Positions 19,129 to 49,892 of a stretch of DNA of 64,000 nt are shown here, one piece after another. Under the pieces are notes generated by a model. It searched no databases. It was not told the DNA's origin and saw only the letters and a list, made by a program, of their open reading frames with translations. This DNA comes from Amphiscolops sp. MND2022 (taxonomy: Eukaryota). Numbering within the stretch: position 1 is the first letter of the stretch; every line of letters starts with the position of its first letter. Both the position numbers and the translations under genes were made by a program. Location of the stretch: assembly GCA_964187785.1 (NCBI GenBank), contig OZ076409.1, positions 46,316,001 through 46,380,000 of the forward strand, read 5' to 3'.

Positions 19129-19160
19129 CGCTTGGGGTCACTTTCTCTCTGGACGTGGAT

Positions 19161-19870: not shown

Positions 19871-20058
19871 CTGAAAACAAACAGCATAGAGATATGAAAA
19901 AAGAAAGCATACCAACAAAGGCTGAAGGGACCCTCGGATAGTCTGGGGAGAACCACAGGAATGTACGTCTAACGGATTATAGTAAGTTCGTAGACTTCCA
20001 AAAACTTACTACAGGTAACTTTGTAGAACTTTTTCTACAAACTTGCTCTAGTTTTAAA

Positions 20059-22063: not shown

Positions 22064-23008
22064 GTTTTAAACTGAATTCTAAACAAAACTGAATGAAGGG
22101 GATTTTCACTACCGTTAGGACTTCGCCAAGCAAGACGTCCGCTGGCGGCCCTTGAGCACTAGTAAAGGTGGCGGTGTAGATGAAGTCTCAGGACAATATT
22201 GAATGATGATTGGCCTATCTGACGTTGTTCCATTTTTAGTCAGCGCTTCATGATTTTTCATACCACACTACAGACCAAAATAGTTCCACAAAGTTCTACA
22301 AAACTTTATGATGTCAAAATGAAGCATTTGACCTAGCGAACAGAATCAAAAAGGTTTTTCCTTCTTTTCCTCGTAACAACAGCCTAATTGTTGTGATAAA
22401 CTTATTAAATAGCTTATGCAAGTGAACGCATTCGCTCTTTAATAAGTCATTTCAGTTGTTCTCGTGTAAAGCCCGGCCTTTTGGGTGTCCCTTGCAAAAG
22501 GGTTTTCAGAAACCGGCCCGAACTGGACACTTATATATGGATAACTACAGCAGGAAGTACCCAATTACAATCTGCTAATCAGATATCATTCATTGGACTG
22601 GACCTTCACTGGTTGCAGAATAGCCTCGGAAGATTACACCTGGACCTGGCATGGACGTTCACTGGTTTGCAAAGGGTTCCGTCAAAATTGATTGTTAGTT
22701 CGTTCTAAGTTTATTTCTATCCATCTGTTGCTTTTTCTTTCTACTATTCCATTCATCTGTTGCTTTTTCTCCTGGATGGTTTTAATCATTGGTGCTAGTT
22801 CATTGGACAACATAATTAAACAATACCCACAACGATCAAAACACAGCATCTGTCAAAGTCGATTGCTATTAGAGGCCTAACCTTCGATACCCGCAGTTCT
22901 CGAGGGCAACGAGCCCAACGAGTGGCAGTAAATAGGTCGAATTTTTCGGGTCGAAAGGATAGAGGTCGAACCTTTTGATCAAATTGCAGGGATCGAATTC
23001 GAAACCGA

Positions 23009-25270
23009 CTTCAAAGGCATGCTCTTTTTCGGAGACCTGAATGCCAGACATACATACTGGGGAGACACAACCGCAAACGACCATGGAACCATGTTAGAGG
23101 ATAGAAAGAACGAAAATATCGCTGTAATCAATAATGGTGAACCTACTTTCCTAGCATCAAATGGTAATAGCGTCATCGACTTCGGCATTCTGACTCACTC
23201 CTTATCTTCAAAACCTACATGTCTTACAACAGACGATGAAACGGAACTTTTCATTGGTGCTCCAGCCAGAGTACACATTCTGGTCTGTCTGGAGTTAAAA
23301 TTATCAGCGGAACCTCATGCAGTACAATCCAAGACGTGGATAGAAAAGGCGGATTGGAAATCTTGGCAAAACTTTTTAGAACAAGAACTTTTTGACCCAG
23401 TAAATTGGAATGATGACCCCGGGCGCTGCTGGGAATCTTTTAAAGGCCTACTGACGGAAGCTATGAATCTCTACATTCCGACAAAACGAACCAATAGAAA
23501 CAGCAAGCCGTTCTGGATTGAGGAAATCAGCAAAGCTAGTTATGAATCAAGAGCCTTGAGGCGCAAGTTCAAATACAACTCCAACTACCGAAACGGTCAA
23601 CATCTAGCACAAGCTAGAGATAATTTCAAAAATGAACTGTCTGAGAGCACATCAACATGGATGAGTAAAATTTTAGCCGAAATGGGACATTAACACGGAA
23701 AACAGTTCTGGTCAATTTACAATAGGCTTTTCAAAAGAAAAACCTGCGGGATGGGCCCTATTAAAGACTCCGAGGGAAAATTGCTCTGCGAACAAAAGGA
23801 TATTGCCGAACATTTGAAACAGACTTTCTTTGAAGCCGTTCATTTAAAAAAACCACAGATATGACAAAAGTCTTCGTCAAAAAATCGAGAAGTATCTGCA
23901 AACGGAAGTCCGTATCTCTTTCCAGGAGGAGACATTAGACATTAGCAAGACGAGTTCTCACTCATTGAACTGAAGAAAACGTTGAAAATTGTAAAAAGCA
24001 GCTCGTTCGACAACGATCTCATCCATCCCAAAATTTTGCAAAACTGAGGAGAAAATACCAAGTTGGCAGTTCTCGAATTATTCAATATGAGTTGGACTAA
24101 ATCAATTTGGCCATGGGGAACTTCAAAGATCATTTTCATCAAGAAAGCTGGCAAGAGCGCTTATGACCTTGCATCAATCTTTCGACCTATATCAATAACA
24201 AGCCACATTGGGAAGTTGTTCGAAAGGATGATCGAGCGACGACTGCGTACCTTCCTTGAGGAAGAGAGTATCATCGAAGAAGAACAAGAAGGGTTTGAAA
24301 GTAGAAAGAACACGCTTAGATTCCTCTACAGAGTCGATTTCGAATGTGAATTGGTAAGAACGCATAAAGAATCTGCTGCACTTCTAAACGTAGACATTGA
24401 GAATGCTTCGACAGTGTGTGGCTCGATGGCTTGATCTACAAATTGAAGAATCTGAAAATCAATGGGAAAATGATAAAAATGATTGACGCCTACCTTCGTT
24501 CCAGAAAAGGACAGAATAACCTAGATCCTTACACATCACCCCTGTTCGGTATTCATATTGAAGAACCACAAGGAAGGGTTCTCTCCCCTGTGCTTTTTAT
24601 TATTTTCATCTCTGATTTCCCATCCAACTCATTGAAAAGCTTTAAATTTGCCGATGAATCTTCAGTGCTTCTATCCGGACAGAAAGTTACTGAATCGTTC
24701 AAGGACACCTGCTTAGATATAGAAATATGATGTAGACGCTGGAGATGGCTGTAAACGGGTCGAAAACCGAAATTTTGCCTTTAACCAACTCACCCGAAGA
24801 CTTTAGCCAGATCAATATCAACGGAGAAAAAAGCAAAATTAGCGGAACCACGAAATCACTCGGGCTCAACATTGATTCTAAATTCAACTAGAAACAACAC
24901 ACTGAAATCTAAGTTGCCAAAGCTGCGCGAAACTGGCATATCCTCCGAAAACATTGCAGCACAAAGTGGGGCATTACCATTCCGACCCTAGTCTATCTTA
25001 ACCTATATGTCATACAACCCCAAGTTTTATTTAGAGCACCAATATGGGCACAAAAGAATATCAAATCACTACAACTTTCCCAAAACAATATCCTGAGATT
25101 GATCTTCAAAAACTGTTTCTCGCCACCTATTAGTACAGCTGAAGCTCTCATAGGGATCCCACCAATCGACCTTTTCTGCCAAAGTCTAGCAGTCAAGTTT
25201 TTATTCAAAACAAAGCAAAAAATAACATGTTGAATTTGTTTTATATATATGGATATTGAAGATCCCAAAG
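23009..25270 (+). pseudogene. Second decayed APE-RT LINE ORF2 (5'-truncated)
   Basis: FFGDLNARH..WGD, NGNSVIDF, FRPISITSHIGKLFER, PQGRVLSP, FKFADE; many stops and frameshifts. Confidence 0.85.
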
Positions 25271-25939: not shown

Positions 25940-28058
25940 GGCACACACCTAAATGTAGTATTCCTGCAATTGGTTATGTTTGGAGATTGAGTTGTGATGA
26001 AAAACAACGAAACCTGCAACGCTCTGAATTGTCTGAAGCCCTCAGGGTTGATACACTAGGTAAATGGTAAGCTTTGCAACGATCGGGTTCATATAAAATG
26101 CCCCAAAATATCAAGAACGGAGGCCCGGAGCCTTGCCGAATTTAAATGTTGTAGGTGCTCTTTAGTGAACACTATCACTCAGTGTCACGATGATAACTTT
26201 AGACCAGACACCTTTTTTAATTCAAGCGTTGTTCACTTGAAAAGAGAACCAATTAATTCCCGGATCCCTCTAGCCTGAAACTTGATACCCAAAAATATTG
26301 ATATTTGAGGAACGCTGTCAATTTTTGCCTTATGGACTTATTGCTCTCCTCTTTAAGCTTTTTTTCAAAAAAATCACCTCAAAGAGATAAACGTCAGTGG
26401 TCATCACTCAGTGTAATTATCAACAAACGTATTCGAGATGGTGTCGTTGGGAAAAAACGAAGCGCGACAGAAAACCGCAGCCAAAAGCTGGTCAGATCGA
26501 CGACAGCGTTCCATTTGCACTAGATTAGACGAAGGTAATGTTAAGGCAGGAATCAGAATGGCAGTACGCAACGACAAGATTGCAGATTTCACGGTCAACA
26601 ACTACACGGCCCTCAAGCTGAAAGATTCGCAGATGGAAACTTGCTCTGTTCCGGACCCCACACAAATCGATTGTTTTTCAAACTCTTAGTTTTTCGTTCA
26701 CAAGGCTCTCATGTCCTTCCACAACGGCTCTTGTCCTTCATCAAGTTTTGAAAGATTTGACTGCCAATTCGAACGGGCAAATTGAACTGAATTTTCTCAG
26801 AGCCCTAACAAATCTTGTGAATGTGATTCTTGAACGAAAAGTACCCTTCGAACTTCGACAGTACTTCTTTGGTGCGAAATGAATTTCGCAAAATAAGCCT
26901 GATGAAGGACTTCAGCCTATCGCGGAAGGTAAATCTCTCGGCGGATTGCCCGCAAATTGTGCCTGATACCATGTCTTCGAATCACGTCAAGCAAGATACT
27001 GAAGTCAGCAAGTAGGTGTAGGCACCAAAAGGGGCGCTGAATTGGGCTCACGTGTTTTCCGTTGTTTGATAGAAAGCCCCGAGCCCAAAGAAAACGTAAT
27101 TTTGGAAACTGACTTTGAAAACAATTTCAAATTGATAAACTTTTGAATTACACCCTGAAGTTTATGAGATCTCATGTTCGGCGTACAGTCAGCCAAGTTT
27201 TCTTTTTCACGGTAATTCAGTAATCAAATCTTGCGAAGGGACCCAGCAAGGAAATCCTGAGTCTCTAGTTTTACTTTCGGATTCCATTCAGGGGCTGATT
27301 GACAGTTTGGTGTCAAAAATAAACTTATGGTTTCTTGATGGAAACTTGAGTGATGATTACAGAACCGTTTGGAAAGATCTCAAAAATTTTTGAAGCGGAA
27401 AAAACGCTGGGACTCAAACTTGAACCCACGAAATGGGAAATTTTTTTCCTAGGTAACATCACTGAAAAAAGACGGTTGACAATTTTAGCATCTTTCCAAA
27501 AACTTTACTCCGGGATCAGAACACCAAAAAAAATGAAATTATCAATCTTGGTTCACCTCTCGACCCGAAATCACAAGCAGACATATTGGTAAAGAAAATT
27601 AATGAACTGGAAAAGTTAATGGAATAGTTGAAAAACTAGATTTGCATTATGGTTTTTTATGGTTGAAAAAGTGCTTCAATCTGCGAAAGTTGTTATGCTT
27701 CCTGAGAACCAGTACATGTTTTAATCTTCCAGCTCTCTTGAGAAAAAACATGACAAACACTTACGCGACGGGCCTTCCAAAGTGTGTAACGTGAGTTTCG
27801 AAGATATTTCGAGTACTCAGCAGGCTGATCTTGGGGTTTCAACCGCATCATTATTAGCACTTCCCGCCTTTTTGACCTCAGCTGTTGGTGCGAGTGACTT
27901 TCTCACGACGATTTTCTAAGAAACTTTCGAAAATAATTCGTTTACAAAAGCGCTTGAGAAAAGGTTGAGTTTGGCGAATGAACAGGAAAGTCCTTTCGTT
28001 GGAACCCAGCAAAAATGGACACAACCTCATCAAGGCAGATTCGGGTCTCAATGGCTAT
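25940..28058 (+). mobile_element. Decayed CRE-like non-LTR retrotransposon with an N-terminal PHD-like finger, cut by the Gypsy insertion
   Basis: Frame-broken CLKPSG..KLCNDRVHIKC..FKCCRC (PHD-like); RT motifs QVGVGTKRGAE, DFENNF, GTQQGNP, WFLDG; ends HQGRFGSQWL. Confidence 0.65.
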
Positions 28059-28065
28059 AAATATA

Positions 28066-29417
28066 TGTACTGGACCCGTAGAGCGACAGTGAAAGATGAA
28101 CGTAGGCAGCGCCAGACTCAACATCTAGTAGTCGCAGCAACCAGACCAAGAGCGTCTAGCTAGCTATTGAAGAACTTGTGCAAACATTTTTCAAAACTTT
28201 ATTTGTTAAACTACTGCAGTCATGTAAATTTTTTTAATGAGGCTTTAGTGAATGAAGTTGTTTGTGAACGATAGGAAAGTCAAACTAAAGCAAAACTTGG
28301 ATATTAGTGCCTAAAATCCTATTGAATGACTAATTGGTTTCTATGTAATATCATTTTTGAGATATGACATCATCAATCAGTCACATGTGCTGATGACTAT
28401 GCGTCATTATGCGGTTCGAGATATGTTGAGTACTCACCAGTATACGTTTTTCAAAATTGAATTAGGCGGCTTCCTACGGATTGAAGCATAATGAATACTC
28501 GTCATCAGACACTTTTGACTACGCGGCACTGTGCGGTTTGATAAGTGACACATACTCGAAACTATACGTTTTTCGCTTTAGTTAATCGTTCACTGTATCC
28601 TTCTCATGTATTGATAAGTCCAACCACTAATACAACTTCATACATCACTTTGTGTTGTTTCCAGATCCTCTAGGGTCCTGCTTATTCTTTTGAACGTCAT
28701 GTAGCTAAGATATAAATAACCTGATGTCATAATGATGAACTTCTATTTTTATGTTTTCTGATGATGATTGTGATAAAAAGGGATGCATGTTTTTTTTAGT
28801 TTTCTTGAGATTCTGGTGCTGGAATTCCTTCATTCTTTGATTTCACTTTGTGTAAAACAGTTGCTCTAAGCACTTCGCTCATCCTTTGTAAAACAATTCT
28901 TTCACTTGCATTGATTTCTCTTTGGATTTGAAATACCAGGATACAATTAAAATTCTTCCCCAGCAACTGAAAATACATTTTTACTTGAACAGAATGGGAA
29001 ACAAGAGAAATAGAAGGTCTAGAAGACTAGAAATTCCTTCCCACAGTAGAGAAGGGAATGTAGAAACCCCAAACCTAGGTATTATAACTTTAACTAATTC
29101 TAATTTAGTTGATCAAGAAAACTTAGGTCCTAACATTTTGGAGAATAAACTGACTGAACCCAGTCTAATCAGCAATGAAATCCAAGTTTGGACACAAGAA
29201 ATGGAGAAAAGAAACAATGACAGGATAGGAAAAATGAGAGAAGAAATTGATGGTGAATTTGAAGCAATCCTAAGAGAGATCAAAACTAGCAAAAATGCAT
29301 CTACAATCACAAACCCAAGATCAGAATCAAATGGAAGACAAAACACTCAACCGCGGGGTCCAGAAGTAGGTCTATAGGAATTCACGCATCAGAAAATGAT
29401 AACTCAGACTCTTAAAA
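28066..29417 (+). repeat. 5' LTR (3' end lost with the gag deletion)
   Basis: Colinear with 41823-43177 from TGTACTGGACCCG to aactcagactcttaaaa. Confidence 0.8.
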
Positions 29418-29423
29418 TCTCAA

Positions 29424-29978
29424 ATGATAGAGAATTTACTTTATGCTAAGATGCCTCCCCACCTCAAAATGTCCATTAACCAAGCATACCTTGAAACTGG
29501 CACCTATAATCAAATTGTCAAACATCTCGAACGAGAGATGGAACTAAATGGATTGGAATCCGATGAATCTCTGGTCAAAACACAGATGACCGCAACCAAA
29601 AAAGAACAGAAAACAGAAAAAACCAACAAAAAACAAACTGACAAACCCAAAACACAAATGCCAAAATCATTCTCAAATAAGACGCTTAAAGACGGCCAAT
29701 GCCGTTATTGTAAAGAAGAGGGCCATATAATGACCGATTTCCCAAAATTAGCCAAACGACGCAAACTCCAGGAAGATCCGGATGCGGACAAATGTGAAAA
29801 TTGTAACACAGCCGGACATACTGAAGAAAACTGCTACTTTGGCGAGAATATGGAAAATCGCCCACCCAAATGGAACCTCACAAACGCCCCGAAGAAGGCC
29901 ATTGAAAATTATCAACAAGCCAAAAATCACATCAAAACCGAAATGAACGACTCCAACAACCCTCATCGAAGGATTTAA
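29424..29978 (+). pseudogene. Gypsy gag C-terminal part with zinc knuckles
   Basis: YAKMPPHLK, LEREMELNGLE, CRYCKEEGH, CENCNTAGHTEENC. Confidence 0.8.
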
Positions 29979-30045
29979 ACTAGAAACGCCACACCTCAAC
30001 AACAAAAACGCCGCAATAAAACCACAAGATGACTGGCAGCATCAA

Positions 30046-33000
30046 GTGGAAACCATAAATATTCAACTCAAACGACTCACTACTGAACCTGACTCTACTC
30101 CTCCAACACCTGAACAATCTGAAACTCCGAGTACCTCTCCAGATCAATACTATGAACTCTTCAGTGATGCACCAGACAACTACTTCGAACAATCCACACC
30201 ACAAAACCAACCCCAAATTGACCTAATATCAGAAAACCAACACAAAACCATCACGGTAAAATCAAAACCATCAAATTCTTCTTGCAATGAACAAAAACGA
30301 CCCCTTCTTGATGATGACCTCACCGAACATATACAGTTTGATAAGGAACGAAACTTATCATACCTTCCAATATCAACCTCTCTTACACTTAAGCGTAAAC
30401 GCCACATGTACTACATGCCAATGGACTTCGAAAAATTAACTCTCGACGGACTCATTGATACAAGAGCCCTAACGAGTGCAATTTCCGAACAGGACCTCAA
30501 CAAACTCAAACTGTTAGCAAATGATGCAATCCGAGAAACTGGCCCACCGCCAAATTTTCAAATCATGGCGGCCAACGGACAATTAGAAGTCCCAATTGGC
30601 ACTGTCTTACTTGAATTTGAAGTGGCTGACTTTATGTTAGGAGAAAATTTCATCATCATGAAAAATTTACCAAACCCATTGATTGGCCTTTGTTTCCTAC
30701 GTCGGAACAATGCCACCTTCGATGTCACCCAAGGCATCCTGACATTTCCATACCTTTCAATGTAATTCAAACCTGATACCCAAACAACTATGCGATAAGC
30801 AACTCCACTGTTAGCAGAAAACACCTATACTCTACAACCTGGCGAAACCCTGCCATCGCCAGCAGAATGCCTCACCTCCTGGACCATGACGCAACAGGAG
30901 TTGTAACCGCATCTCCACAATTTGAACACCACGATAGCATCTTCATTACGTCGTCACTCAGCACGGTCAACAACAATGCCATCGGGTACAAAATCATTAA
31001 TTTTTCTGAACTACCATACACATTTCCTCTCGACACTCACCTGGCGGATTTCAAAATACTGGCGCCAGAACAGGTCAAATACATACAACCAGTGGATCCA
31101 GCCTTACTATCGTTCATGATAAAACATGAAGATACATCAGAAATCTACCTAAATGAACTCCTGAAAGTCCCTCCACAAAATCAAGAACAAAAAACTTACT
31201 GGTTCCCAACTCCAGAGGAACCAGGTGATCCTACAACAAACACCCCAATTCAACAACGAATATATGACGAGCTACTCGAATTACAACGACTTGAAAAGTT
31301 AAACTCCGAAGACGATGAAGAATCGCGCAAATCATTTCTTTCCAACTTTGACTGGTCTGAAACGACACTCAGCCCAGCAGAACGACAACACATCGAAGAA
31401 ACTCTCATTGAATTCCATGACATTTTTGCTGGCCATCGTTTTGACATTGGCACAAATCGGGAATTCAAGGTAAAACTCACTCCCAACGATGACAGACTAG
31501 CGTACAGCCAAAGTCTGTCAACTCTGATCAACCTCAAAGTTGACATTACAGTAGAACTTGCCCTTCTACACAAATACGGAATCATAACAACCTTACCCTT
31601 CTCCAAATATGGAAGTCCAATTTTCGCTCAACGTAGACATAACGGACACCTTAGACTCCTTGTTGACCTCAGGAAAATCAACAATCTAATAACCGAAGAC
31701 TACACAAATAACAAACACCCGGTAAGCACATTGTCGGATGCAGCGCAACATATGGCAGGAAAAAAGCTTTTCTGCAAATTGGACTGCTCCCAGGCTTACC
31801 ACTGCCTACAAATGGCTGATTACCAATCCATACAAAAGCTCGCTTTCAACTTTGCCAGCTGAACCTTCGCTTATAGGCGATTGGCACAAGGCCTAAGCAG
31901 ATCTCTCTCAACATTTTCTAGTTTCATGAGAGAGTACTTGGATAAAGCAATCAAAGCGGACCAACGCGTTCAATACGTTGATGACATTGGCATCGCTGCA
32001 AACAATGCTCAGCAACAAAGCGCCAACATCAGAACAGTGTTTGAATGCATAAGAAATGCTGACCTTAAACTTATGATGTCCAAATGCCACTTTGGCGTTA
32101 AACAAGTTGACTTCTTGGGCCGCACAATTACACCCGAAGGAGTCGCCCCACAAGCAAAAAAAGTCAAAAATTTTCTGACCAAACTCAGATTTCCCAAATC
32201 CAAAAAAACCCTCCAGCGATATATAGGCTTCCTAAACTACTATCGCAACTACATTCCACGACTCTCAGAACGGCTATCACCGTTCTTTAGGCTCCTCAAG
32301 GAAACATCTAATTTCTATGTGCCAACAAACTTAGTAGAAAATTTCACCAACCTCAATAAACTCCTCGAAAATTCATGTCAATTGGCATTGAAACAACTCC
32401 TTAAGGACAAACAACTCAGAATCTTGTCCGATGCCAGCTTTACCGCTGCGGGATATGCCATTATGATAGAAGACGAACCAAAACAGAAATTGCAATCAAA
32501 ACGCAAAACATTTGCTCCCATAGCATTTGGATCCAAAACTTTCAACCCGACACAAACAAAAATGTCAATATATGCCAAGGAATTCCTTTCCATATATTTT
32601 GCCTTCGTTGAATTTGGACACCTCATGTGGGGTAGCACATTCCCTGTAATCGTGTTCACCGGTAATAGATCAGTAACCCGATTTTTTCAAGCAAAACTTA
32701 TTCCACCAGCACTTTGGAATGCATGCGATTATGTTTTACAATAGAATTTTGTAATCGCCCACGTTGCTGGATCAATGAACACTGCAGCTGACTTCCTCTC
32801 ACGCACTGAAGTCAATCCAGTTGAAAAACTTGAAATGACCGTCCGAAATGACATACACACCAAAGCAATTGAAGTCAACATACAATCATCACGGATTGTA
32901 GAAGAAGAGCACATTTACATTCTCCCCGATGATGAACTCGACGAAAATCAATTATGGCAAGAGAAGCAAAATATCCGAGACCAAACCCAAAATGAGACAC

Positions 33001-34850
33001 ACAATGAACCCTAAATGAAGATAACCGAACTCCAAAAATTCCATAAACCTACTTCTGGTCTAAACACTTGTTCGGAAGGACGTTTCCGAGACAATGCGAA
33101 AATTCGCACTGAACAAAATAACGATATTGTTCTCAGAAACTTACGAGCAAAAATAGAGGGACACCCCTTCGATGAACATGATTTGGCATCTGACTATAGA
33201 TACCATCATTACCTTCAAAATATCGCCAGAATTGAAATAAAACAAGAAATTCTCACCCGGAAGTACTATACAGACACGGGAACCACCTCCCATTACCAGA
33301 TATTACTTTCGGCTCAACTTTTGGAAGAATTTTTTCAAGCCCTACTTGGTCACAACTCAAACGATTCAGGCATTACAAAAATGATTCACGAAGCCCGACA
33401 AAAATACTATTACCCATGTATTGCTAAATACATCAAAAAATGGGTTACCAACTGCCAAATTTGCATACAAACCAAACGAATTAGCAATGATTTCCTTAGA
33501 ACGGAACTTCTCAACTGTCCAGAATGGGACCTTGGTCCATAAGACATTCTTCAGATGGACATCCTACCCAATCTCTCACCAAGTGGGGTCTATGATCATA
33601 TAATCACAACGATAGACGTTTTTTCAAGGTATTTGTTTGCATATCCAGCAACACGTATCACAGCCTCTGCTGTAGCTCGAGTAATAATGGATATCCTTTG
33701 CAAACACACATATCTACCAACTACAATAATTACGGATTTGGGCACACAATTTAATGCCCAAGTGACACGCAACAATGAACCATGCACAAACCATTGGAAG
33801 CCTAGAAAGTACCCATGCATCAGTGAAAACGCATCTTAAAGCTGCCACAGGGGAGTTCCGAAACAATTGGCACAAGCATCTTCCGCTGGCAGTTTTAAAC
33901 CACAACACTACCTACCATGCAACACTTGGTTGTGAGCCCTAACGAGTCTTTCATGGGCGAATACCCCATACCATACTCGATTACAAGCTCGGATACAACC
34001 CTAACCCAAAATACTTACCACAAACAGATGTAGCTGAAGAAGTGCAGAGAAGAAAGAAATTACTCCTCGACCAAACGAAAAAGAACATAATGCAATCCTA
34101 TCTCAAATACAAAGCATATTATGTTAGGAAAGCAAAAGCATCATCACTTGAAACAACGGATTATTGTTACGTCTTAAACCGGAAGGCGGATACCCAGGCA
34201 ACAAAGATACCCTTTCGAGAGTTTAGATGACAAGGCCCATATAAAGTTGAGAAAGTCCTTCCTAACAATAACTACCTTGTTAGACGATTAGGAACCAACA
34301 AGACGCAACTTTTGCACCGAATTCGTTTGCGGAAGTTTACCCCCCAAGCTCCTCTTGCAGACATTTTCGTTAGAGAAACTGATTGGCAGAAAGATGATCC
34401 ACTGCCAATAGCGCAAGACGATCTATATGCCCAATCCTGGAATACAAATTTTGGTCCCAATCCGTTTGAGGACAACCCCCCAGAGTATTGTCAAAATACA
34501 GAAGATATTGAATACCTACCAATTACAGCACCCGAAAATAACCACCCTCCCTCCCGCGAAATTTCAAAAAATAGAGGCGGGAGCCCAGTGGAACAGACCA
34601 CTGAACTAGATCAAAACCATGAAAATCGTGCCGACGAAACTCCACAACAATTAAAGGAAGATGATGAAACTAATACCCAAAAAACCCAAAAAGATACAAA
34701 TACTTCAACAGATAATGATATTCAGAAAACCCCAGAAAACTAAAACTCCCAAAATACCCCATTGCAAGAACAACCCATAAATACTCGTTGTGAAAAATAC
34801 AACTTACGCCCTAATCCCAATCCAAACTACTCTGATAGAAATAGATATCA
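30046..34850 (+). pseudogene. Gypsy pol (protease, RT, RNase H, integrase) with many stops and frameshifts
   Basis: LIDTRALTS (protease), LRLLVDLRKIN, KLDCSQAY, QYVDDI, ILSDASF, IDVFSRYLFAYP, IITDLGTQF, GPY-like C-terminus. Confidence 0.92.
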
Positions 34851-35052
34851 AAAACAACTTCTGCAGTCTGACTCTTATAGGTACTAAGAAAAGAGTTGCA
34901 GATAAATCTTCCTTTTTATCTTCTAAATGCACTCCAGTGAATTGTTGATTTTCTCTTTTTATCACGAAAGCAATCTGAATAAATACAAAAGACGACTTGA
35001 CGCAATCTAAGATAACAAACAAAGAAACAAAATGACAGACAACTGCCAAGTT

Positions 35053-38000
35053 TCATAATAAGTTCTTCTTGCCTTTAGCATGTTTGGCATTAGTCTTCTT
35101 GGGACTGCTACCAGTTTTGGATCCGGAACAACGGTCAAGAGTAACGCTGACTCTACTTAGAGTAGTGTCAGGGGACGGGGAACTGTTGGCACTACTTGTT
35201 CGACTGATACTTGGAGTCGTAGTAGTAGATGAGATAACAGGTCTATCAAACCGCAAAACTGACTTTCGATACCCCGTTTCCAGTTTGCCCAGTAATGATG
35301 TTTTCCTCGCAACATTTTTTTTTCGAAAAATTCCAAATTGAGAACTTCTTGTCTGACAACAGGTCTGCTCCTCGCCCCAATAAACGAAAGGCTCGGTTGA
35401 CAGTCTTGGCATTCCTATACAGGCTAGATACGTGGGGCACAGTGCTGTAAGATAATTGAAGGCTCCTCACGCAGGATTGGAAAGTTTCACTGTCGGATTC
35501 TAACCCTGGCATAAGGACGCTAAACTCCAAAGGCATATCCTTTTGAGGGGATAAACACAAGCACGCAAACTTGTATACTCGAAGCAATTCGGGACAACAC
35601 TGGAGCTTATATTGTGAGGACATAAACTGAATTCAACAATCGTACTCTGGGACAGGTTCAGCTCGCAGTTTGGTGACAAATGACCGGTATTGACTAATGA
35701 TCTTTACTTTATCACCAGAAGTATATAGTCCAGTGGACACAAAATGGCTAGACAGCTTCTCAATTGCAACCGCATACTTGGCTTCAGGTCCATCAAAGAT
35801 GACCGCAGAATCGAACGCCGATATTCCTCTAACAAGTTTGGATCTAACGTTTTCCTGCTCTAACAACTGCTTACACGAAGTCTTATTAAAACAGATCGAT
35901 TGCTCCACGAACTTGCAAGGGCGAGCCAATTTGCTTGCTGAAACCAACTTGTGAAAATCTTCTTTGAGCACATATTCATCTGTGGTCTTAAAAGGTAAAT
36001 CGCTCCGGTTCAAATCTAGCTGCAAGAAGTTATCCCAGTCAGAGATGTTTCCGATAGTTTCGTCTGGTAAAGTAGTCTGCAGTTGGCTATAAGTGAAGAC
36101 AGCAAACTGACTGAATACTCGGAAGCCTCCTTCGACAGCCTTTTGAATCTCAGAAAAGGCGGAGTTGTCTGAAACATAACGAACTGAATAAAGTGATGAC
36201 ATAGTTACGAGAGAGTGAATCATCATCAAGAAAGATCACTCAAGATCGCTTCATTGTTAAAACCACACGTGCAAAAATATCTTAACTAAAGGAATAGTAT
36301 ATGGAAAGAATTAATTACAAACTATACTAAGTGATTTTTAACAAAAAAAGATTGTCTATGCGGCATTGTACGCTTCGAGTGGTGGTGACTATACGTTACT
36401 ATGCGGTTCGAGGCGTGATGACTATACGTCACAATGCGGAAACTGCATTGTGGACTATACGGCACTATGCTGACAAAGACATGGAGACTATACGGCACCA
36501 CGCGGAACCAGCAGTGTTGTTTTGTTGATGCCAATTAAAGTTTATATGACCAGGTACACGTTGCCATGCGGGCTGAGTAGGTACGTGTATGCATCTGCAT
36601 GCGGAAACGGAAGATAAATAACGTTGTTGAAAGGAACTATTCAACATTGATCTGATCAATAGAATACTGGATTATTGCTCAAAATAACTAAAGAAGAACA
36701 ACTAACAGTGGTCTAGTACACATCTGATGACAAAGAGGCGTGGAAGATAGGCGCTGTCAAGACGGAAGCACTCATCTACTGTACTTGGCTATAACGAAAA
36801 CATTGAATTGAAAGTTGAAGCGTCAAAGAGTGAAGCAATAATTGGAACGGCAATTCATAAAGAATACTTACTTCACGCATGTGAAAACGATAGGCCGGGA
36901 GTCTCGCAACTTGGTTAAGGTGTTCTTGCACATTGTTCCAGTTATTGGAGAGGCTCTCTATGATTGAAGATGCAGCGTATAGGGAGTATTCTAGCCGGAC
37001 CACTCCCTAGAGAAAACAAGTAAAGGTTATGGAATGAAGTTTGATTACTTTTGCAACTCGAATGAGAATGCAAGTAACCTTATACAGGAGGGGCAGTTTC
37101 TTTAACCAGTCTTTGTCCAAAGCTGTTCTTAGCTTCATGAGCAAGAAATCTAGAATAGTTCGATGATCGTGCCGTTCTATGATCTGTGACATTGACAATA
37201 TCCCAAACTCTTTTCGAACTCCTCTGGTCCGTACGTTCGGACAATTGAGGGCTGATGGTCTCCTGGAAGACATATCGACAGACATTGGCTCATCTTCTCA
37301 TCAAAGTTAATGAGGGAAACACATGTTAGAGGGGTCTCAAAGAGGCTGATGAAAGACAATACCAGACTCAGAATTTTCTTTGGTAAAAGCATCCCACGGG
37401 GGCACTGCCCAAACACACACGATGGAGTACATTTCCTGACCAAAACCCAATGTTAACATACGTCATCGTGGTTGAATGTTGTACTGCTAGAGAATAGAAT
37501 CCGGAAGAAGTGATAGCAGTAGTACAATAGCCGATGAGTTAACGGAACATGTGCACCAGAATTCCCTGTAAACCAAACGAAACGATGTAAAATCCTATGT
37601 ACAGATTGGTAGTCTGGGCGTTCATGATTCAAATCTCTTAGGTGCCAAAAGAGTGTAAAATTTCTTGATAAGGTGACAAAATCAACAAGTAATATTACAA
37701 TACTAACGAAAAGTCGTTGTGGACTCGAGTTCTGCGAGCAGAAATGCGTCTCGGAAGTTAACTGGGAAAATTCATCATAAATCCCGGTCAAGCTTTTGAT
37801 ATGTCCTCCGTGACGAAGACCATATACGAGTATACTGATCTGTGACAGAATCTTGTCAGTAGGACTGATGTAGGAACTGAAATTGGGCACAGAATCCTGT
37901 CCTACAAGTGGCCGGCATGCATCTTGTTGAGGGACAATTGAATATGTGTCAGTGGCTTTTTTCCTTGCTTCTTTTAATGACACCCCCAATATCTGAACCC

Positions 38001-39007
38001 CATCTTTGTCGTAAAGAGCCATCCCTGAGATCTCCATTCGTATCCTATGCTCTTTTATCAGATGAGATTCGGTCTTGTATTGGGATAACAATTCTAGACT
38101 GCCCCTACTCAATAAAGAGAGTTCCACTTTGCACACCCGGCACCACCATTTATGGATATTCTTGTTCCTGTCATTTGGTCCGGTAGCCGAGAATTTCATG
38201 ATCGGGTGCTTTTTGAGCATCGCAGTTGTTAAGGAGTACTTCGGTAGCCTGCGTTTTCCCACGGAACGATCATCTGGAGGTGCTTGTGAAACAGTGTTAG
38301 ACGAAGTTGGAACACCAACATCCTCTTGACTAGATGTTAATAGCATCGTGGGCGGTTCTAGTTCATCAACGACCATGAAAGTAAAAGGTTGGTCGGCCTC
38401 GATCTCGTCATTAACTACAAATTCTGGTGGTATCCGTCCAAGAAAGTCATTTAATACGAGTAGATCTCTCCGTGTAATGTTGACACTACCGGGTATAATG
38501 GGGGAATCCCGAGATGTTCTGTCCTGGCTTGGTCATTCGGCTGGATTTCCATGTTCTCACTCTCTGGTAGTACATCTTGTCCTGGCGCCCCAGCACTAAT
38601 TTGGTCAAGTTCATCGTTGAGTCATTGGGAAATTATCTGGCTATATCGAGTATAAATTGATTGGATTGTTCCAGGTGCAACGTATTCCTCATGCATTTCT
38701 TGAATAATTCCGACGAATGTTTCTTCCGTTGCTCTAAGTGGGGTCGTATTGGGTTCGGGGTTAGTCCTGCTCGTCGACGGAACCTTACCGCTCCCAAGAC
38801 TTTGAGAGTTCACAGGCTCAGCAACCGAAGAATGCAGAGTAACAGTACAGGCGTCGGCAGTGGTGCTTTCATCATATTGTAACGCTGGAGTTCCAGGCGT
38901 TTCTTGGGCGTCAGTGGTATCGGTCTTACTAGGAGATGAAGATCGCAAGGGGGTAAACGTTTTTGCAGGAGAATGATCTGATGACAATCCACTGGTCTCA
39001 GGCTCAA
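35053..39007 (-). pseudogene. Spliced antisense gene inside the Gypsy element; BED-finger, hAT-transposase-like protein (decayed in this copy)
   Basis: ORF pieces 38622-38987, 37453-38376, 37177-37443, 37007-37285, 36776-37003, 35633-36229 and 35246-35623; three junctions are short GT-AG introns, the rest are stops or frameshifts; WWCRVC...H finger; hAT-like C-terminus. Confidence 0.6.
36354..36508. repeat. Five-unit array with an exact 33-bp period
   Basis: Core starts at 36354, 36387, 36420, 36453 and 36486 (G[A/T]CTATRCG..AY.ATGCGG), separated by variable ~13-bp linkers. Confidence 0.85.
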
Positions 39008-39750
39008 CTGAAACAAACGTTCTATTAATAAAATAGATTCAACAAAATTAGCGAGCAGTTATTCGATAGGAAATTGACTGAAACCGGACGCGGGGACAGG
39101 AAATGCATAAAAGACCGGATGCTGCTGAGAAGTTGGAAACGGAAACGTTTCAAACATTTTGAAACTGGTCTGAAAATATGAATCCCTTTTTCGTTCACAA
39201 GCCTGGCCAGCTTGGAATAAAACTCAAAAGTTTACTATCAAAACAAATCAAATCAAATTCAAAATTAAATGAAATTCAAAACAAAATTCAACAAATGAGA
39301 CGGTTAATGGAATTTGATAGACAGTAACCTTTCAGAAGAAGTCTAATTCAAAAGGGAAACAAAGGAACTGAAACTGGAAGTGAAATTAACAGAAGATAGA
39401 CTGGGAGATTGTTTCGTAGCTACAAATACTAAACTAATAGACTGACTTAACAATGATATAAGTTATTCAAAACGAAAGTGAAGATTTTAATCTAGACTGA
39501 TCTTGTGGCAACAGAAATGATTTTGTCTGATAAAACGATGTAAAGGCGTGGCGTTAATATAGCATGAGAAGGCAAAAGAGCAAACGAAAATGATTGAGCG
39601 CAAATATGTGTGGGGAATACTGCAATATGATTGGCTGTTTAAATGTCAATCGCGTCTGCCAGCGTGATTGATTGACTCATTATGACTTCTGCAAACAATG
39701 CTGATATATATGAATTGTTTTTATGCTGATTGGAATGATTTAGTAAGCGA

Positions 39751-39900
39751 GAGTATGCGGCAGTATGCGGATCTACCAATGACAAGTATGCGCCAGTATG
39801 CAGTTTATTAATTTGGATTATGCGGCAGTAAGCGGATCTACTAATGATGTGTACGGCAGTATGCGGATTACCATTTTGGACTATGCGGTAGTATGCGGAT
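39751..39900. repeat. Five-unit array with a ~32-bp period of a related TATGCGGCAGTATGCGG core
   Basis: Units at ~39751, 39784, 39816, 39847 and 39879. Confidence 0.8.
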
Positions 39901-40790
39901 TGAGCAGTGACGCATACTCGTCAACCTGCGGTTTTCGCTATGTGCTTGCCAAGTTACGGATTACACCACCAATGTGTGGAGATGAATGAATGAAGCATTA
40001 TTACGTAATACGAGTGTTGAAATCACATATTTATTTTCACTAACAATAAATAGCCATGTTGATGTATTATATATATGCATGCAACCTCCACTTTTCAATA
40101 ATATTTCATTCAATCTACAATCTGTCGATTTGACATATTGATTTGAAAAATTGGATAGAGAGTAATACCAGTTAAACGAAGTAATCCCATTTCCTTGAAG
40201 ATACAACTATGGTATACTTGTTGATTGATGAAGCCTAACGCACTTTTCAAGTGCGGGACAAAACAGGACAAATTTTTATGAATAGAACTAGTTTGAAACT
40301 GATGAAATTGGTGCAAAACCCTAAGGTGATCCAAGCTTTTACCCCCTTCCCAGTCATGTAAACTCAAATGAATATCGTTTAGATTTTGTTTTATGATAAA
40401 ATGTTATATCATTTTTATTCCAATTTTGCTTTGAAGCTAGATCAAAATTTGTTTACGTATCATTTAAATACTGACGAAACGCGGTGAAGACCACTGATGA
40501 GTGGAAGTCAGGTGGTGATGGAATCTGGATTACCTAAAAAGGAATTTGTTTATGAGACATCATCAGTGAGACTTATGAGCAGAAGCCTAAAAGAAACCCT
40601 TATAAGAAGAGTTGGGAGATCAGACCATGACAAGCAACTTTTTTTGCGGGTTTTCCTCCCTTGAGAGAAATTAAGTGAGATAATCAATACCATATGGTCT
40701 TTGCAAACTCACAAACTACTCGCATGAAACACGAAAGTTTCAAACTTGTAAAATAATATTTCAAACTGAAGTTTCTTAAAAACTTACAAA

Positions 40791-41849
40791 ATGAATAACT
40801 TACAATTCGCAATTGAAGAAGACACCCTGTACTCGCCTCTGTCACCTGACGTTATCGAAATTTCAAGTATTTCCGATAATGAATTCTTGGTAGAACCGGG
40901 AAACGTACCTCAACTGCTAGACAGGTTCAGAGCTAATACGGTAGATAGGAATCCTATGACCGCATTTGTGGGATCTGCTGCAGCATTATTGTTCCCCTCT
41001 GGAGGAAATGGAGTACCCCCTCAAGATACAATAGACGTCCGAGGAACGAGAATTGAAAGGGAATTAATGGACCTAATTGAAGGGGATCTGCCATCCACTG
41101 CGTCTTTTTTGCCTTCATTTATTGACAGCGAATTGGAGCCGGAAAACGAATCCTCGAATGACCTGAACCCTGATACTGATACCAGGCTAAATAACTACGG
41201 TTGTCCGACTGCGGCGATCCTTCCTTCCCCAAGGAACGCTGAACACCAATCTGATACCGCGAGTCAGCCAGTCCTAACTTACCCACCGAACTATCATCCA
41301 AACTCTTCAGATTTCTACCCTTGGGATGGAAATACAAACAACGAACGAAACCTCACACCAAATGCGAGTCAAGATGAAGGGCAAGCAAGTGTGTTAATTT
41401 TACCCAACTACAACGAAACCCAGAATGCCCCAATGTCTAACGCAACCCCCTTAGTGGTCCAATTGCCTCCACGAGGAGCTCCGAATATTCCGCCTAGAGG
41501 GTCAATTCCAATACACCCAATGGTGCAAGTTGGATTTACGTTTTTTGTGGCACTCAGTAGAAACATATTATTTATGCCGATCAACGAGAGAGACAACTGT
41601 AGGCTATTCCCAACAGTTATGCCCAACGTGGCTGGCATCTGTGAATACTGCAGCAAAACCTATGAACAGATCGCTTTGGAAACCCTTGGGGACTACCTTG
41701 CAGTTACAGCCTACGACGACGAGACTGTCAGGGACCGCGGGGTCCGCTCCAGAGCTTTTATAGATGGATTTGAAGCTGCCCTCTTCATCTTTAAAAGAGC
41801 GGGACTGTTCCAGCCATACAGCTGTCCTGGACCCGTAATGCAACAGTGA
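40791..41849 (+). CDS. Intact 352-aa orphan ORF in the env position of the Gypsy element
   Basis: ATG in aaaATG context; uninterrupted frame; Pro/Ser/Asn-rich middle; C-terminal CEYC motif; stop lies inside the 3' LTR. Confidence 0.65.
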   Translation: MNNLQFAIEEDTLYSPLSPDVIEISSISDNEFLVEPGNVPQLLDRFRANTVDRNPMTAFVGSAAALLFPSGGNGVPPQDTIDVRGTRIERELMDLIEGDLPSTASFLPSFIDSELEPENESSNDLNPDTDTRLNNYGCPTAAILPSPRNAEHQSDTASQPVLTYPPNYHPNSSDFYPWDGNTNNERNLTPNASQDEGQASVLILPNYNETQNAPMSNATPLVVQLPPRGAPNIPPRGSIPIHPMVQVGFTFFVALSRNILFMPINERDNCRLFPTVMPNVAGICEYCSKTYEQIALETLGDYLAVTAYDDETVRDRGVRSRAFIDGFEAALFIFKRAGLFQPYSCPGPVMQQ

Positions 41850-43301
41850 AAGATGAACGTAGGCAGCGCCAGACTCAACATCTAGAAGTCGCAGCAACTA
41901 GACAAAGAGCGTCTAGCTAGCTATTGAAAACTTGTGCAAACATTTTTCAAAACTTTATTTGTTAAACTACTGCAGTCATGTAAATGTTTTTAATGATGCT
42001 TTTGTGAATGAAGTTGTTTGTGAACGATAGGAAAGTCAAACTAAACCAAAACTTGGATATTCGTGCCTAAAAATCCTATTGAATGACTAATTGGTTTCTA
42101 TGTAATATCACTTTTGAGATATGACTTCATCAATCAGTCACATGTGCTGATGACTATGCGTCATTATGCGGTTCGAGATATGTTGAGTACTCACAAGTAT
42201 ACGTTTTTCATAATTGAATTATGCGGCATCCTACGGATTGAACCATAATGAATACTCGTCATCAGACACTTTTCACTACGCGGCACTGTGCGGTTTGATA
42301 AGTGACACATACTCGACACTATACAGTTTTCGCTTTGGTTAATCGTTCACTGTATCCTTCTCATGTATTGATAAGTCCAACCACTAATACAACTTCATAC
42401 ATCACTTTGTGTTGTTTCCAGATCCTCTAGGGTCCTGTTTATTCTTTTGAACGTCATGTAGCTAAGATATAAATAACGTGATGTCATAATGATGAACTTC
42501 TATTTTTATGTTTTCTGATGATGATTGTGATAAAAAGGGATGTCGTGTTTTTTTTTAGTTTTCTTGAGATTCTGGTGCTGGAATTCATTCATTCCTTGAC
42601 TTCACTTTGTGTAAAACAGTTGCTCTAAACCCTTCGCTCATCCTTTGTAAAGCAATTCTTTCACTTGCATTGATTTCTCTTTGGATTTGAAATACCAGGA
42701 GACAATTAAAATTCTTCCCCAGCAACTAAAAATACATTTTCACTTGAGCAGAATGGAAAATAAGAGAAACAGAAGGTCCAGAAGACTAGAAACTCCTTCC
42801 CACAGTAAAGAAGAGAATGTAGAAACTCCAAACTCAGGTAATATAACTTTAACTAATTCTAATTTAGTTGATCAAGTAAATTTAGGTCCTAACATTTTGG
42901 AGAATCAACTGACTGAACCCAGTCTAATCAACAATAAAATCCAAGTTTGGACACGAGAAATGGAGAAAAGAAACAATGAGAGGATAGGAAAAACGAGAGA
43001 AGAAATTGATGGTAAATTTGAAGCAATGCTAAGAGAGATCAAAACTAGCAAAAATGCATCTACAATCACAAACCCAAGAACAGAATCAAATGGAAGACAA
43101 AACACTCAACTGTCGGGGTCCAGAAGTAGGTCTATAGGAGTTCACGCATCAGAAAATGATAACTCAGACTCTTAAAACGAAGATAGTCATCCTATCAGAG
43201 CATCGAATATGCACGAACTAAGAAACCCGGCAAAACCATTTTGTCAAAATAGATTCGGATTAGATGAAACAATAGTTTCAAATGAAGACTCTGAGGAGGA
43301 G
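41806..43301 (+). repeat. 3' LTR (runs into the gap)
   Basis: Copy of the 5' repeat; purine-rich aaaagagcggga (41793-41804, candidate polypurine tract) precedes TGT at 41806. Confidence 0.75.
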
Positions 43302-43501
43302 NNNNNNNNNNNNNNNNNNNNNNNNNNNNNNNNNNNNNNNNNNNNNNNNNNNNNNNNNNNNNNNNNNNNNNNNNNNNNNNNNNNNNNNNNNNNNNNNNNN
43401 NNNNNNNNNNNNNNNNNNNNNNNNNNNNNNNNNNNNNNNNNNNNNNNNNNNNNNNNNNNNNNNNNNNNNNNNNNNNNNNNNNNNNNNNNNNNNNNNNNNN
43501 N
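43302..43501. other. Assembly gap (200 N)
   Basis: Run of N. Confidence 1.
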
Positions 43502-46170: not shown

Positions 46171-46332
46171 AAGTCTGTTGTAGGGTCATGAAAAAATTTT
46201 AGATTTTGAGATGTACATACATCGTTTTTCGCGGCACAGTTGCTGCTTTCTACGGAAAAATCATCCAGCATGGCATGAAACTTTTCAGAAGCAAACCTTA
46301 AACAGAAACTAATAGAAACATAAGAATTAAGG

Positions 46333-48055
46333 AACAAGACGGGAACGTCTAAAGTCGGCGCTAAATCTAAGGCTCAAAAAGCGCAAAACCTTTTTTTGGA
46401 AAAAAAACTTGAAATTTTCGAAAAAAACTTTCTTCCAGAAAATGTCACACAGTGCCGAAAAATGTAAAAGAGGGGACCATTTTTAATTTCCAAACATGCA
46501 TTCTGTTGCAAAATAACAAAAAACTCTAAGGGGGGACCTTTTGGGGACATCAAAAAATTTTCGAAAAAAAAGTCGCACAGTGCCGAAAAAAAATCAAAAG
46601 TGGGGACCCTTTAGCCTCGGCCGGTTTTTTAGGTTACCTTAAAAATGGAAGGAAAAAATGAAAGGGGGGACCCTTTGGAGACAAAAAAATTTTCGACAAA
46701 AAGTCGCACAGTGCCGAACAAAATTCGAAAGGGGGGACTCTTTAGTCCCGTCCGGTTTTGTAGATTACCTTGAAAAAGTAAAAAATGAAAGGGGGGACCC
46801 TTTGCACTAAGTTTGCGTTGGCCCCTTTGCCGGACTCGGCGCCTTAGGTGGTTTCAGGATTGTTTCTAAAAAGTGGACCGATCAGTGTGAGGATTGTAGT
46901 CTGAAGAAAAAACAAGCCGGGAACAGCCCAAGTCGGCGCCATATCTAAGGCTCAAAAACAGCAAAAGGACTTCAAAGTGTCAAAGTATTCTCTTCTACGG
47001 TACCGGAAAAACCCAAAAGTTGAACCGAATTGGCGCACCAGAGGGGACACTTTGAGATTTTTCATCCATTCTGTGGCAAATCATCAAAAAAAATTGAAGA
47101 AGGGGCACTTTTGGTGAAAAAATTTTTTTTGAAAGAAAGTCTCACAATGCCAAAAAAACTGAAAGGGGGGACCTTTTGGGATTTTTCAATACCGTTCTGT
47201 CGGAAAACTCCAAAAAAAATTGAAGGGGGGACCCTTTGTGGAAAATTTTTCTCGAAAAAAAGTCTCACAGAGCCGAAAATACTCTAAGGGAGTACCCTTT
47301 GGCCCCTTTGAGTTCCTTAGATGATGTAAAAATACTGCTTCGCAAGCTTTTGCGCCAGTATTTTAAATTTGCTGAGTAAGAATTGTAAGATTTTAAGATT
47401 GTAAGAATTGTAAGAAAAGTGGACCGATCAGTGTGAGGATTGTAGTCTGAAGAAAAAACAAGCCGAGAACGGCCAAAGTCGGCGCCATATCTAAGGCTCA
47501 AAATTTAAAAGGGGGACCTTTCGGGCTTTGTGAAACTCCAGCTGGTTGCAAAAAATTTTAAAAAATTGAAGGGGGGACCCTTTGGAGACATGAAAAAATT
47601 TCCCAAAAAAAATTTTAATGAGATTTTTGAACAGTGTCACAGTGCCGAAAAATGTAAAAGGGGGGACCCTTTGCGATTTTTTGACATCCATTGTGTTGCA
47701 AAACATCAAAAAAAATTTGAAGGGGGGACCCTTTGGGGAAAAAATTTCAATCCAAAAAGTTTCAAAAAGTCGCATAGTTCCGAAAAAAAGTGGGGATTCT
47801 TAGTGTGATTTCGAGGTTGTGGACGTCTGTTTTGTTTTTTCTTTTCGTTTTGGACGCCCTTCTGAGGTTGGAGTTGTTGAGGTTTGAAGTTGTGGAGGTT
47901 GTTGAACAAATGAACAAAAAGTGGACCTTTCGTGTCTAAAAAAAAACTACCCACTGTAATAGTCGGGCACATTTTCTACTAAAATGCGCCGACTAAAAAC
48001 AGTCACTGCTATAGTCGGGCATTTTTCCCTAAATGGAAAAGCGCCGACTAAAAAC
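46333..48055 (+). mobile_element. Nested or tandem copies of a high-copy non-autonomous repeat (Helentron/DINE-1-like)
   Basis: AACAAG...AAGTCGGCGC heads at 46333, ~46911 and ~47457; internal GGGGGACCC units; atagtcggg...gcgccgact hairpin-like ends. Confidence 0.55.
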
Positions 48056-48286
48056 ACGCTGTATCCATATTGTTGACGTTTTTTATACTTAACTAAGCCC
48101 TGGCCAGTAGGGTGTTTGAAGGCAATTCTGATGGCAATTTCCACTTTGTAAGGACCACTCTTTGTTATCTTTTAGCATCCGATTAGGAAATATGGATGAA
48201 TAATCAAAAGGTCTGTTTTTCAAATTTTACAAAAGATCTCTCCTTTGTTTTTTGTCAGATTTTTTTCGAATATTTTCTATATCTCC

Positions 48287-49877: not shown

Positions 49878-49892
49878 TCCCCGTTTGTTTGT

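Follow-up and report, generated by a model that had tools for sequence, protein, structure and literature searches.

Two divergent accessory genes downstream of pol in a decayed Ty3/gypsy-type LTR element

Long terminal repeat (LTR) retrotransposons may carry open reading frames (ORFs) besides gag and pol, and the role and origin of these extra ORFs are an open question, most of the plant cases having no known origin (PMC7264820). In the plant Retand elements, 2.9–6.6 kb separate pol from the 3′ LTR and include antisense TRP28 ORFs (PMC11963269), gene23 of Grande has its own promoter (PMC7264820), the Oikopleura elements Tor3b/4b have an internal promoter for env (PMC4402516), and bdelloid elements bear diverse ORF3s (PMC5408684). 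The primer binding site of Ty1 is located inside the GAG ORF (PMC4974528). Transposases also function as regulators, regulators of transposase origin being known, and they lose catalytic residues (bioRxiv 10.64898/2026.08.24.746577), and the anti-silencing protein VANC binds a short motif that is repeated in the introns and in the intergenic and terminal non-coding tandem repeats of Arabidopsis DNA transposons (PMC5735166). Here we describe an element at positions 28066–43301 of a 64,000-nt stretch of contig OZ076409.1 from Amphiscolops sp. MND2022 (GCA_964187785.1, positions 46,316,001–46,380,000), which as a whole is called the window. The element is a decayed member of a large Ty3/gypsy-type LTR element family. 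The reading that we favor, with fair confidence, is that of a gypsy-type family with two divergent accessory genes, which are likely transcribed from the spacer between them and are likely self-regulators of transcription.

Self-comparison of the window gave one long direct repeat, 28066–29417 and 41823–43177, with 95.1% identity over 1356 nt; the two repeats differ by 33 transitions and 28 transversions, a Kimura two-parameter distance of 4.7%. Between them, Pfam matches follow the gypsy order of gag, protease (PR), reverse transcriptase (RT), RNase H (RH), and integrase (IN). From the end of pol at about 34848, there are 6,975 nt to the 3′ LTR. Pol is followed by the coding pieces of an antisense gene (39007 to about 35053), then by a spacer of 1.8 kb and an open sense ORF of 352 codons (ORF352), after which comes the right repeat. 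A previous sequence-only reading had proposed this layout of LTR-gag-pol, antisense spliced gene, spacer, sense 352-aa ORF, and 3′ LTR, and it holds with some corrections. The direct repeats are real, but they also hold about 186 gag codons and the last 9 codons of ORF352. The spacer of about 1.8 kb is present, but it likely contains an intron and an upstream exon of the antisense gene. The stretch of about 7 kb past the integrase was confirmed by measurement, but it has a precedent in the plant Retand and Grande elements with antisense genes.

Linkage of the cassette across the family

Are the two accessory genes a trait of the family? Homologues of ORF352 were found in 80 other 90% clusters, with 757 members at 34–87% identity, and homologues of the first large antisense exon (exon 1) in 112 other clusters, with 759 members; these homologues are ENA records without names. 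The linkage analysis covered at most 15 members from each of 7 ORF352, 10 antisense, and 8 gag clusters, and contigs were equated through their reported size, used as a label, and not through the DNA of the other copies. ORF352 and the antisense gene have 68 contigs in common, out of 170 and 232 (5.6 expected by chance), gag and the antisense gene have 51, out of 137 and 232 (4.5 expected), and gag and ORF352 have 27, out of 137 and 170 (3.3 expected). The chance rate was obtained from 2 co-locations in 14,051 cross-cluster pairs of ORF352 and is rough, as it comes from two events only. All three genes are present on 12 contigs, including ones of 17,272 and 28,167 nt. Furthermore, the sharing tracks subfamilies: P0008 and P0371 share 10 of 12 contigs, and gag P0605 occurs with antisense P0361 on 9 of 13. 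Three permutation tests of this subfamily matching gave no value as high as the observed one in 20,000 permutations. The two-gene cassette is very probably family-wide, and the expectation that other copies conserve it is borne out by its co-occurrence with gag, matched by subfamily.

No relatives were found in viral contigs, in GTDB, or, with ORF352 as the query, in JGI. A gag scan of JGI gave a single locus of 1,162 nt (L001, positions 1–1162 of a metagenome contig), which encodes a related gag with 55% identity and is too short to reveal the cassette. Since the gag end of L001 carries a TTTAAAC heptamer identical to that at the gag/pol overlap in the window, the lineage occurs beyond the ENA records.

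The antisense gene, ORF352, and the spacer

The coding pieces of the antisense gene are bounded by GT-AG sites whose positions recur in the homologues, and the predicted coding total is about 1,100 codons. The end of exon 1 is followed by Val-Ser in 147 of 155 matched homologues (379 examined), as a GT donor would be translated; in the window, this donor is at 37707. The acceptor pattern at 39007 is seen in 52 of 104 long homologues, and most of the others have been called from a downstream Met. Because this acceptor is conserved, the spacer likely holds an intron of the antisense gene together with an upstream exon. Exon 1 encodes a basic patch, an invariant CxxC, and two conserved His, and the protein is conserved down to 24–30% identity, with the invariant Cys/His and the intron positions kept. 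The position of the first intron is also retained in the distant relatives P0250, P0254, P0256, P0269, P0313, P0317, and P0319 (24–31%).

What is the origin of the antisense gene? Among 73 aligned members, 3 matched the Pfam family zf-BED, the best of them (E 1.6e-4) being the one above the Pfam cut-off, and Pfam gave no zf-BED match for the window copy itself. In the atlas, the first matches of P0250 are unnamed clusters (0.93–0.94), followed by SPIN-DOC zinc finger and FAM200/ZBED5 clusters (0.90–0.92), which we take to be hAT derivatives. The model of the exon-1 domain is confident, with a predicted local distance difference test (pLDDT) of 84. Fold searches with this domain gave no clear match, the BED domain of ZBED1 being at rank 4 (E 1.9) and the best VIA Z being 5.0, and profile searches of PDB with the exon-1 and exon-2 alignments gave 0 matches. 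For an RNase-H-like DDE core, the homologues of exon 2 had no match in Pfam or PDB. By eye, exon 2 shows a pattern of three strands, a helix, and a strand, with a hydrophobic residue and no Asp at what would be the position of the first catalytic Asp of hAT enzymes, which is a lead and not a test. The predicted protein from the finger onward is about 790 aa, which fits the size of a hAT transposase. A C-terminal hAT dimerization domain was not matched in Pfam by the last exon, which is decayed and for which no intact homologue was retrieved, and no reference transposase was found when viral contigs were scanned twice with degenerate hAT motifs. We suggest that the antisense gene is a resident gene that is likely derived from a hAT transposase. 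A nested hAT transposon was also considered for this gene and was rejected, as no terminal inverted repeat (TIR) with an 8-bp target-site duplication (TSD) bounds it; none was found between 34835–35060 and the spacer or the end of ORF352.

Of 176 listed members, 84 have ORF352 in full length and with its conserved tail. Its N-terminus is 15–22% D/E, Pro makes up about 10%, and the C-terminal CxxC and helical hairpin are conserved. The AlphaFold model has a mean pLDDT of 45, with a helical hairpin at 291–336 only. There was no Pfam match and no usable atlas match, and the fold searches gave no clear match (Foldseek best E 2.3; VIA best Z 6.0). No transmembrane segment was found, the maximal 19-residue hydropathy (KD19) being 0.98–1.48 in 8 representatives. 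An env-like identity was rejected, since ORF352 has no signal or transmembrane segments and no Pfam match.

The spacer contains a cluster of a TAYRCG-type motif and a 32/63-nt tandem repeat (39754–39900), and a 71-nt stretch at 39872–39942 resembles the LTR (74.6% identity, E 1e-5). The motif occurs 5 times per LTR, 8 times in the spacer, and 7 times in the predicted intron 3, with 0 occurrences in 5.9 kb of gag-pol and 0 in ORF352. In shuffled sequences, the mean counts were 0.6–1.1, and 0 of 500 shuffles reached the observed counts. No pyrimidine-rich splice acceptor was found upstream of ORF352 in 40600–40800. A sigma-70 scan, of no relevance for a eukaryote, stayed at chance level, and an Rfam search gave 0 matches. 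On the indirect evidence of the divergent starts, the LTR-like stretch, the motif cluster shared with the LTR, and the absence of a strong acceptor before ORF352, the spacer probably contains a promoter that serves both genes, as the sequence-only reading had proposed.

Terminal repeats, gag, pol, and neighboring features

The start of the LTR lies inside the last codons of ORF352, and its end lies about 186 codons into gag, the intact homologues of which are 559–563 aa long. Such an LTR, with that much of gag and the end of a second gene in it, would lead LTR annotation astray and give rise to many stub ORFs. A tandem second element was first suspected because the repeat includes the start of gag. 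The right repeat, which stops about 3 codons before the break point of the family, is thus an LTR of about 1.49 kb that is almost complete. A tandem copy may lie behind the right LTR, under the N gap. The end of the left LTR was removed by a deletion of about 700 nt.

The break point is given by 154 gag homologues, 114 of which run on past an acidic tract and YH into the capsid, while 18 break there and 22 were unscored by the pattern. The breaks are exactly after YH in 16 cases and two residues later in 2. In 16 of the 16 exact breaks, the next residue has an A-first codon (background 0.43; p ~2e-6), which fits an LTR ending in CA at about codon 186–193. The element would thus have long direct terminal repeats of the form TG...CA, the TGT start being seen and the CA end, outside the visible window sequence, being drawn from the 16 homologues. 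In 122 of 129 matched ORF352 tails (176 examined), a Cys is located 8–9 residues before the stop and corresponds to the TGT of the LTR. Long gag and an LTR-end gag stub are found together on contigs 552488, 446269, 236496, and 278350. Upstream of the right repeat, a purine-rich run of 12 nt ends 18 nt before 41823, and the true LTR start may be 17 nt further upstream.

In 5′ LTRs, this end would be followed by TGG in the Met-Val codons, the site inside gag at which priming is predicted. The prediction comes from the invariant H-M-V-T codons and the tail of P0556, the site being deleted in the window copy. P0556 is a gag stub among those unscored, and its post-LTR peptide could be encoded by the complement of the 3′ end of a mature tRNA that had been copied. 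CCA is present, along with 5 of 5 T-stem pairs and 6 of 7 conserved T-arm positions (11 of 12 for the T arm). The mismatch is at position 58; RT misreads the modified A58 of tRNA. None of 400 random controls reached the score of 11.

The pol order PR-RT-RH-IN is that of Metaviridae. In gag, zf-CCHC is above the Pfam cut-off and Ty3_capsid and Retrotrans_gag are weak (E 0.002–0.03), in keeping with the same membership. The best PDB match of the integrase is Ty3. For the RT, foamy virus (E 2e-17) and Ty3 (E 4e-16) are close together in PDB. A stable structure 3′ of the slippery site was not found in the window (z 0.42; z −2.3 for L001). The copy in the window is dead, with 9 in-frame stops over three pol segments, several frameshifts, and an internal gag deletion of about 232 codons. 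Internal deletions seem to be frequent in the family, as P0599, P0612, and P0225 are natural copies that have gag joined to integrase or RT, or exon 1 joined to exon 2. The coordinates of the element are collected in Table 1.

Table 1. Features of the element, with positions numbered from the first letter of the window.
Feature	Position	Strand	Remarks
5′ LTR	28066..29417	+	Begins TGT; last ~140 nt and primer site gone in internal deletion
gag	28994..29983	+	Starts within LTR; residues ~141–372 deleted at 29417/29421; stop and frameshifts; two CCHC knuckles
TTTAAAC heptamer at gag/pol overlap	29974..29980	+	Predicted −1 frameshift site; frameshifting inferred
pol: protease, RT (YVDD), RNase H, integrase (H2C2, core, GPY-type C-terminal domain)	29974..34848	+	Stops and frameshifts
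Last antisense exon (predicted)	35053..36168	−	Stop and frameshift; no Pfam match; known from this copy alone
Intron 3 (predicted)	~36169..36584	−	33-nt tandem repeat, 7 TAYRCG-type motifs; donor position uncertain
Third exon (predicted, broken)	36585..37006	−	Acceptor at 37006
Intron	37007–37078	−	Candidate sites
Second exon	37079..37565	−	Broken by a stop and two frameshifts; homologues, e.g., P0489 (40–57% identity), are open
Intron	37566–37707	−	Candidate sites; conserved donor at 37707
First large exon	37708..39007	−	N-terminal part of low complexity, basic patch (KRR), C2H2 finger of BED-like type, helical domain; one frameshift near 38495
Spacer	39008..40790		1.8 kb, 35% GC; CCAAT- and TATA-like words; predicted divergent promoter
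ORF352	40791..41849	+	Open; N-terminus acidic, middle disordered and rich in Pro, CxxC and helical hairpin at the C-terminus; last 9 codons inside 3′ LTR
3′ LTR (or shared LTR of tandem pair)	41823..43301	+	Gag stub 42753–43301; stops ~3 codons before family LTR end
200-N assembly gap	43302..43501		Cuts right repeat; covers LTR end and place of any 4–6 bp target-site duplication

The insertion site of the left LTR is in or beside a decayed reading frame at 26900–28065 that by eye resembles a non-LTR reverse transcriptase, without a Pfam match, and the sequence after the gap shows no visible continuation of this frame. Elsewhere in the window, an intronless ORF of 329 aa at 13662–14651 (−) resembles the kinase PBK/TOPK (E 2e-41 to PDB 5j0a), which is in favor of an animal host, and LINE-like endonuclease/RT ORFs are seen by eye in pieces at 15918–20005 (−) and 22932–24434 (+). 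A short ORF at 21338–21745 (+) resembles the hAT C-terminal dimerization motif by eye, with no match in Pfam, and a 47-nt inverted repeat at 20595–21132 is located just upstream of it. Arrays of repeats of about 120–130 nt at 46300–52000 and 420–650 have a GGGGGACCCTTT core in both orientations and are possibly MITE- or foldback-like.

Proposed mechanism, alternatives, and comparison with known systems

In the mechanism that we propose, genomic RNA would run from LTR to LTR and be driven by the LTR, a host tRNA would prime at the site inside gag, and pol would be produced by −1 frameshifting at TTTAAAC. Both accessory genes would be expressed from the spacer as regulators, and the introns of the antisense gene would persist through retrotransposition, being in antisense orientation relative to the genomic RNA. 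If splicing is as predicted, the antisense protein has about 1,100 aa, and it would be a hAT derivative that has kept a BED-type DNA-binding finger and lost the cutting activity. It would bind a short motif in both LTRs, in the spacer, and in its own intron, so that its own family stays transcribed or unsilenced, and ORF352 may be a co-activator or an adaptor for a host factor. Support decreases from the promoter to the hAT origin and from there to the function, all of which go beyond the anatomy and the linkage, which were observed. A regulatory role through the TAYRCG-type motif is put forward as a tentative suggestion. More doubtful is the full proposal that an animal LTR lineage has domesticated a catalytically dead hAT transposase as an antisense gene with introns and employs it, with ORF352 as a co-factor, as a sequence-specific activator or anti-silencing system acting on short repeats of its own LTRs, spacer, and intron, with modules that can be swapped among some 80–110 clusters. 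If that were true, a retrotransposon would borrow the protein of a DNA transposon to evade host silencing. The family is of high copy number and likely animal, both of its accessory genes are conserved, with many copies open, and it has a traceable candidate origin (hAT/BED) and a candidate binding motif, so that the question of extra ORFs becomes testable.

Several observations weigh against this reading. The three best atlas matches of the antisense protein are unnamed, and FAM200-ZBED5 is found on 54% and 10% of the members of two matched clusters. No hAT catalytic or dimerization domain was found in Pfam or PDB, and the hAT-core part of the argument comes from motifs read by eye. The TAYRCG-type motif was picked after these regions had been viewed, which biases the shuffle test, and it occurs 32 times in the 48.6 kb outside the element (0.66 per kb). 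In the window copy, no polypurine tract was found directly at the observed LTR start. Gene order, strand, and spacer conservation are seen in the window copy alone, and the cassette homologues with a listed source are all from ENA, likely from one assembly. Between subfamilies, the divergence in ORF352 does not track that in the antisense gene (Spearman 0.02 over 266 pairs). The correlation over 25 contigs (rho 0.19) is driven solely by pairs within subfamilies, and with local alignments it is 0.03 (p 0.33, 24 contigs). One ORF352 subfamily pairs with two antisense types that are 47% alike, and the converse is also seen. This suggests that modules have been swapped between subfamilies; note that a shared contig need not be a shared element.

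How else could these results be explained? The cassette might be a family trait and the antisense gene not hAT-derived or not a regulator, being instead a captured zinc-finger gene or acting in integration targeting, in nuclear import, or as antisense RNA. Reviews of the antisense ORFs of plants name nuclear import and dsRNA regulation among the options (PMC7264820). Consistent with such a gene, the Pfam, PDB, and fold searches gave nothing beyond the weak BED-like finger. However, the retention of invariant Cys/His and intron positions at 24–30% protein identity, the atlas leads toward FAM200/ZBED5-type clusters, and the agreement of about 790 aa with the size of a hAT transposase argue against this alternative, which we consider unlikely. 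An improbable explanation is that there is no internal promoter, with ORF352 being expressed from a spliced LTR transcript, as env is, and the antisense gene from an antisense promoter in the 3′ LTR. Spliced messages are the usual route for an ORF3 (PMC5408684, PMC4402516), and the conserved acceptor at 39007 means that the antisense transcript begins further upstream. The interval before ORF352 has no pyrimidine-rich acceptor, however, and the spacer has the 71-nt stretch and the motif cluster in common with the LTR.

It is very improbable, and largely refuted, that the region is a composite, either with the antisense gene as a nested DNA transposon of the ordinary kind or with unrelated elements joined by chance or misassembly. 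The N gap that terminates the right repeat, the 4.7% difference between the LTRs, and the reassortment of modules across subfamilies would be compatible with such a composite. It is opposed by the finding of the antisense gene together with gag and ORF352, in matching subfamilies, on tens of contigs, the near-equal member counts of the two accessory genes, the family-wide ending of ORF352 in the LTR, and the lack of a TIR and TSD.

How does this element compare with those already described? Among the top listings of the literature searched, which did not extend to Repbase, Dfam, or most subscription journals, there was no LTR element that combines a spliced antisense gene of BED/hAT type with a divergent sense gene, and none matching was found in the available parts of PMC3286476 and PMC9911081. 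The suggestion of the sequence-only reading that this is a complex, possibly undescribed lineage agrees with that literature. Troyka was rejected, as the element has a TGT start, a GPY motif, and an LTR of about 1.5 kb, in contrast to the CG...CG termini, the lack of GPY/F, and the LTR of 100–400 bp given for Troyka (PMC12440569).

The TG...CA LTRs, Ty3-like capsid, CCHC knuckles, PR-RT-RH-IN order, and GPY-type integrase tail are those of Ty3/gypsy elements such as yeast Ty3. Unlike Ty3, the element is about 16 kb long, has a third of gag inside the LTR and two accessory genes, and lacks a purine tract directly at the LTR start. It resembles Ty1 in the predicted location of the primer site in the gag ORF and differs from it in that Ty1 has the copia order. 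The LTR/gag overlap of Ty1 is short, in contrast to about 186 codons here. VANC and TnpA belong to plant DNA transposons, and the parallel is one of motif layout only. Foamy virus Tas/Bet offers another parallel, predicted here, in an internal promoter and a transactivator that acts on both the LTR and that promoter. The foamy virus accessory ORF runs into U3. However, foamy virus is a retrovirus with env and has both of these genes in sense, and no sequence similarity was found between its accessory genes and those of the element. Like Oikopleura Tor3b/4b, the element would be an animal gypsy element with an internal promoter for a third gene. The third gene of Tor3b/4b is a membrane Env, whereas ORF352 has no hydrophobic segment (maximal KD19 1.0–1.5), and no antisense gene was seen in what is available on Tor. 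Plant Retand/Grande, Oikopleura Tor, and the foamy viruses are thus precedents for parts of the arrangement. The element resembles the Retand/Tat elements (Grande, RIRE2, and Retand) in that a long region separates pol from the 3′ LTR and, in Retand/Tat, contains conserved antisense ORFs, for which DNA binding is predicted, and tandem repeats. Membership in Retand/Tat was rejected because PF04195 (TRP28) was not matched in the Pfam scans. TRP28 is confined to flowering plants, whereas the element is from a likely animal genome, with an antisense gene that contains several introns and encodes a BED-like finger. Furthermore, unlike Retand/Tat, the element has a second, sense gene, which overlaps the LTR.

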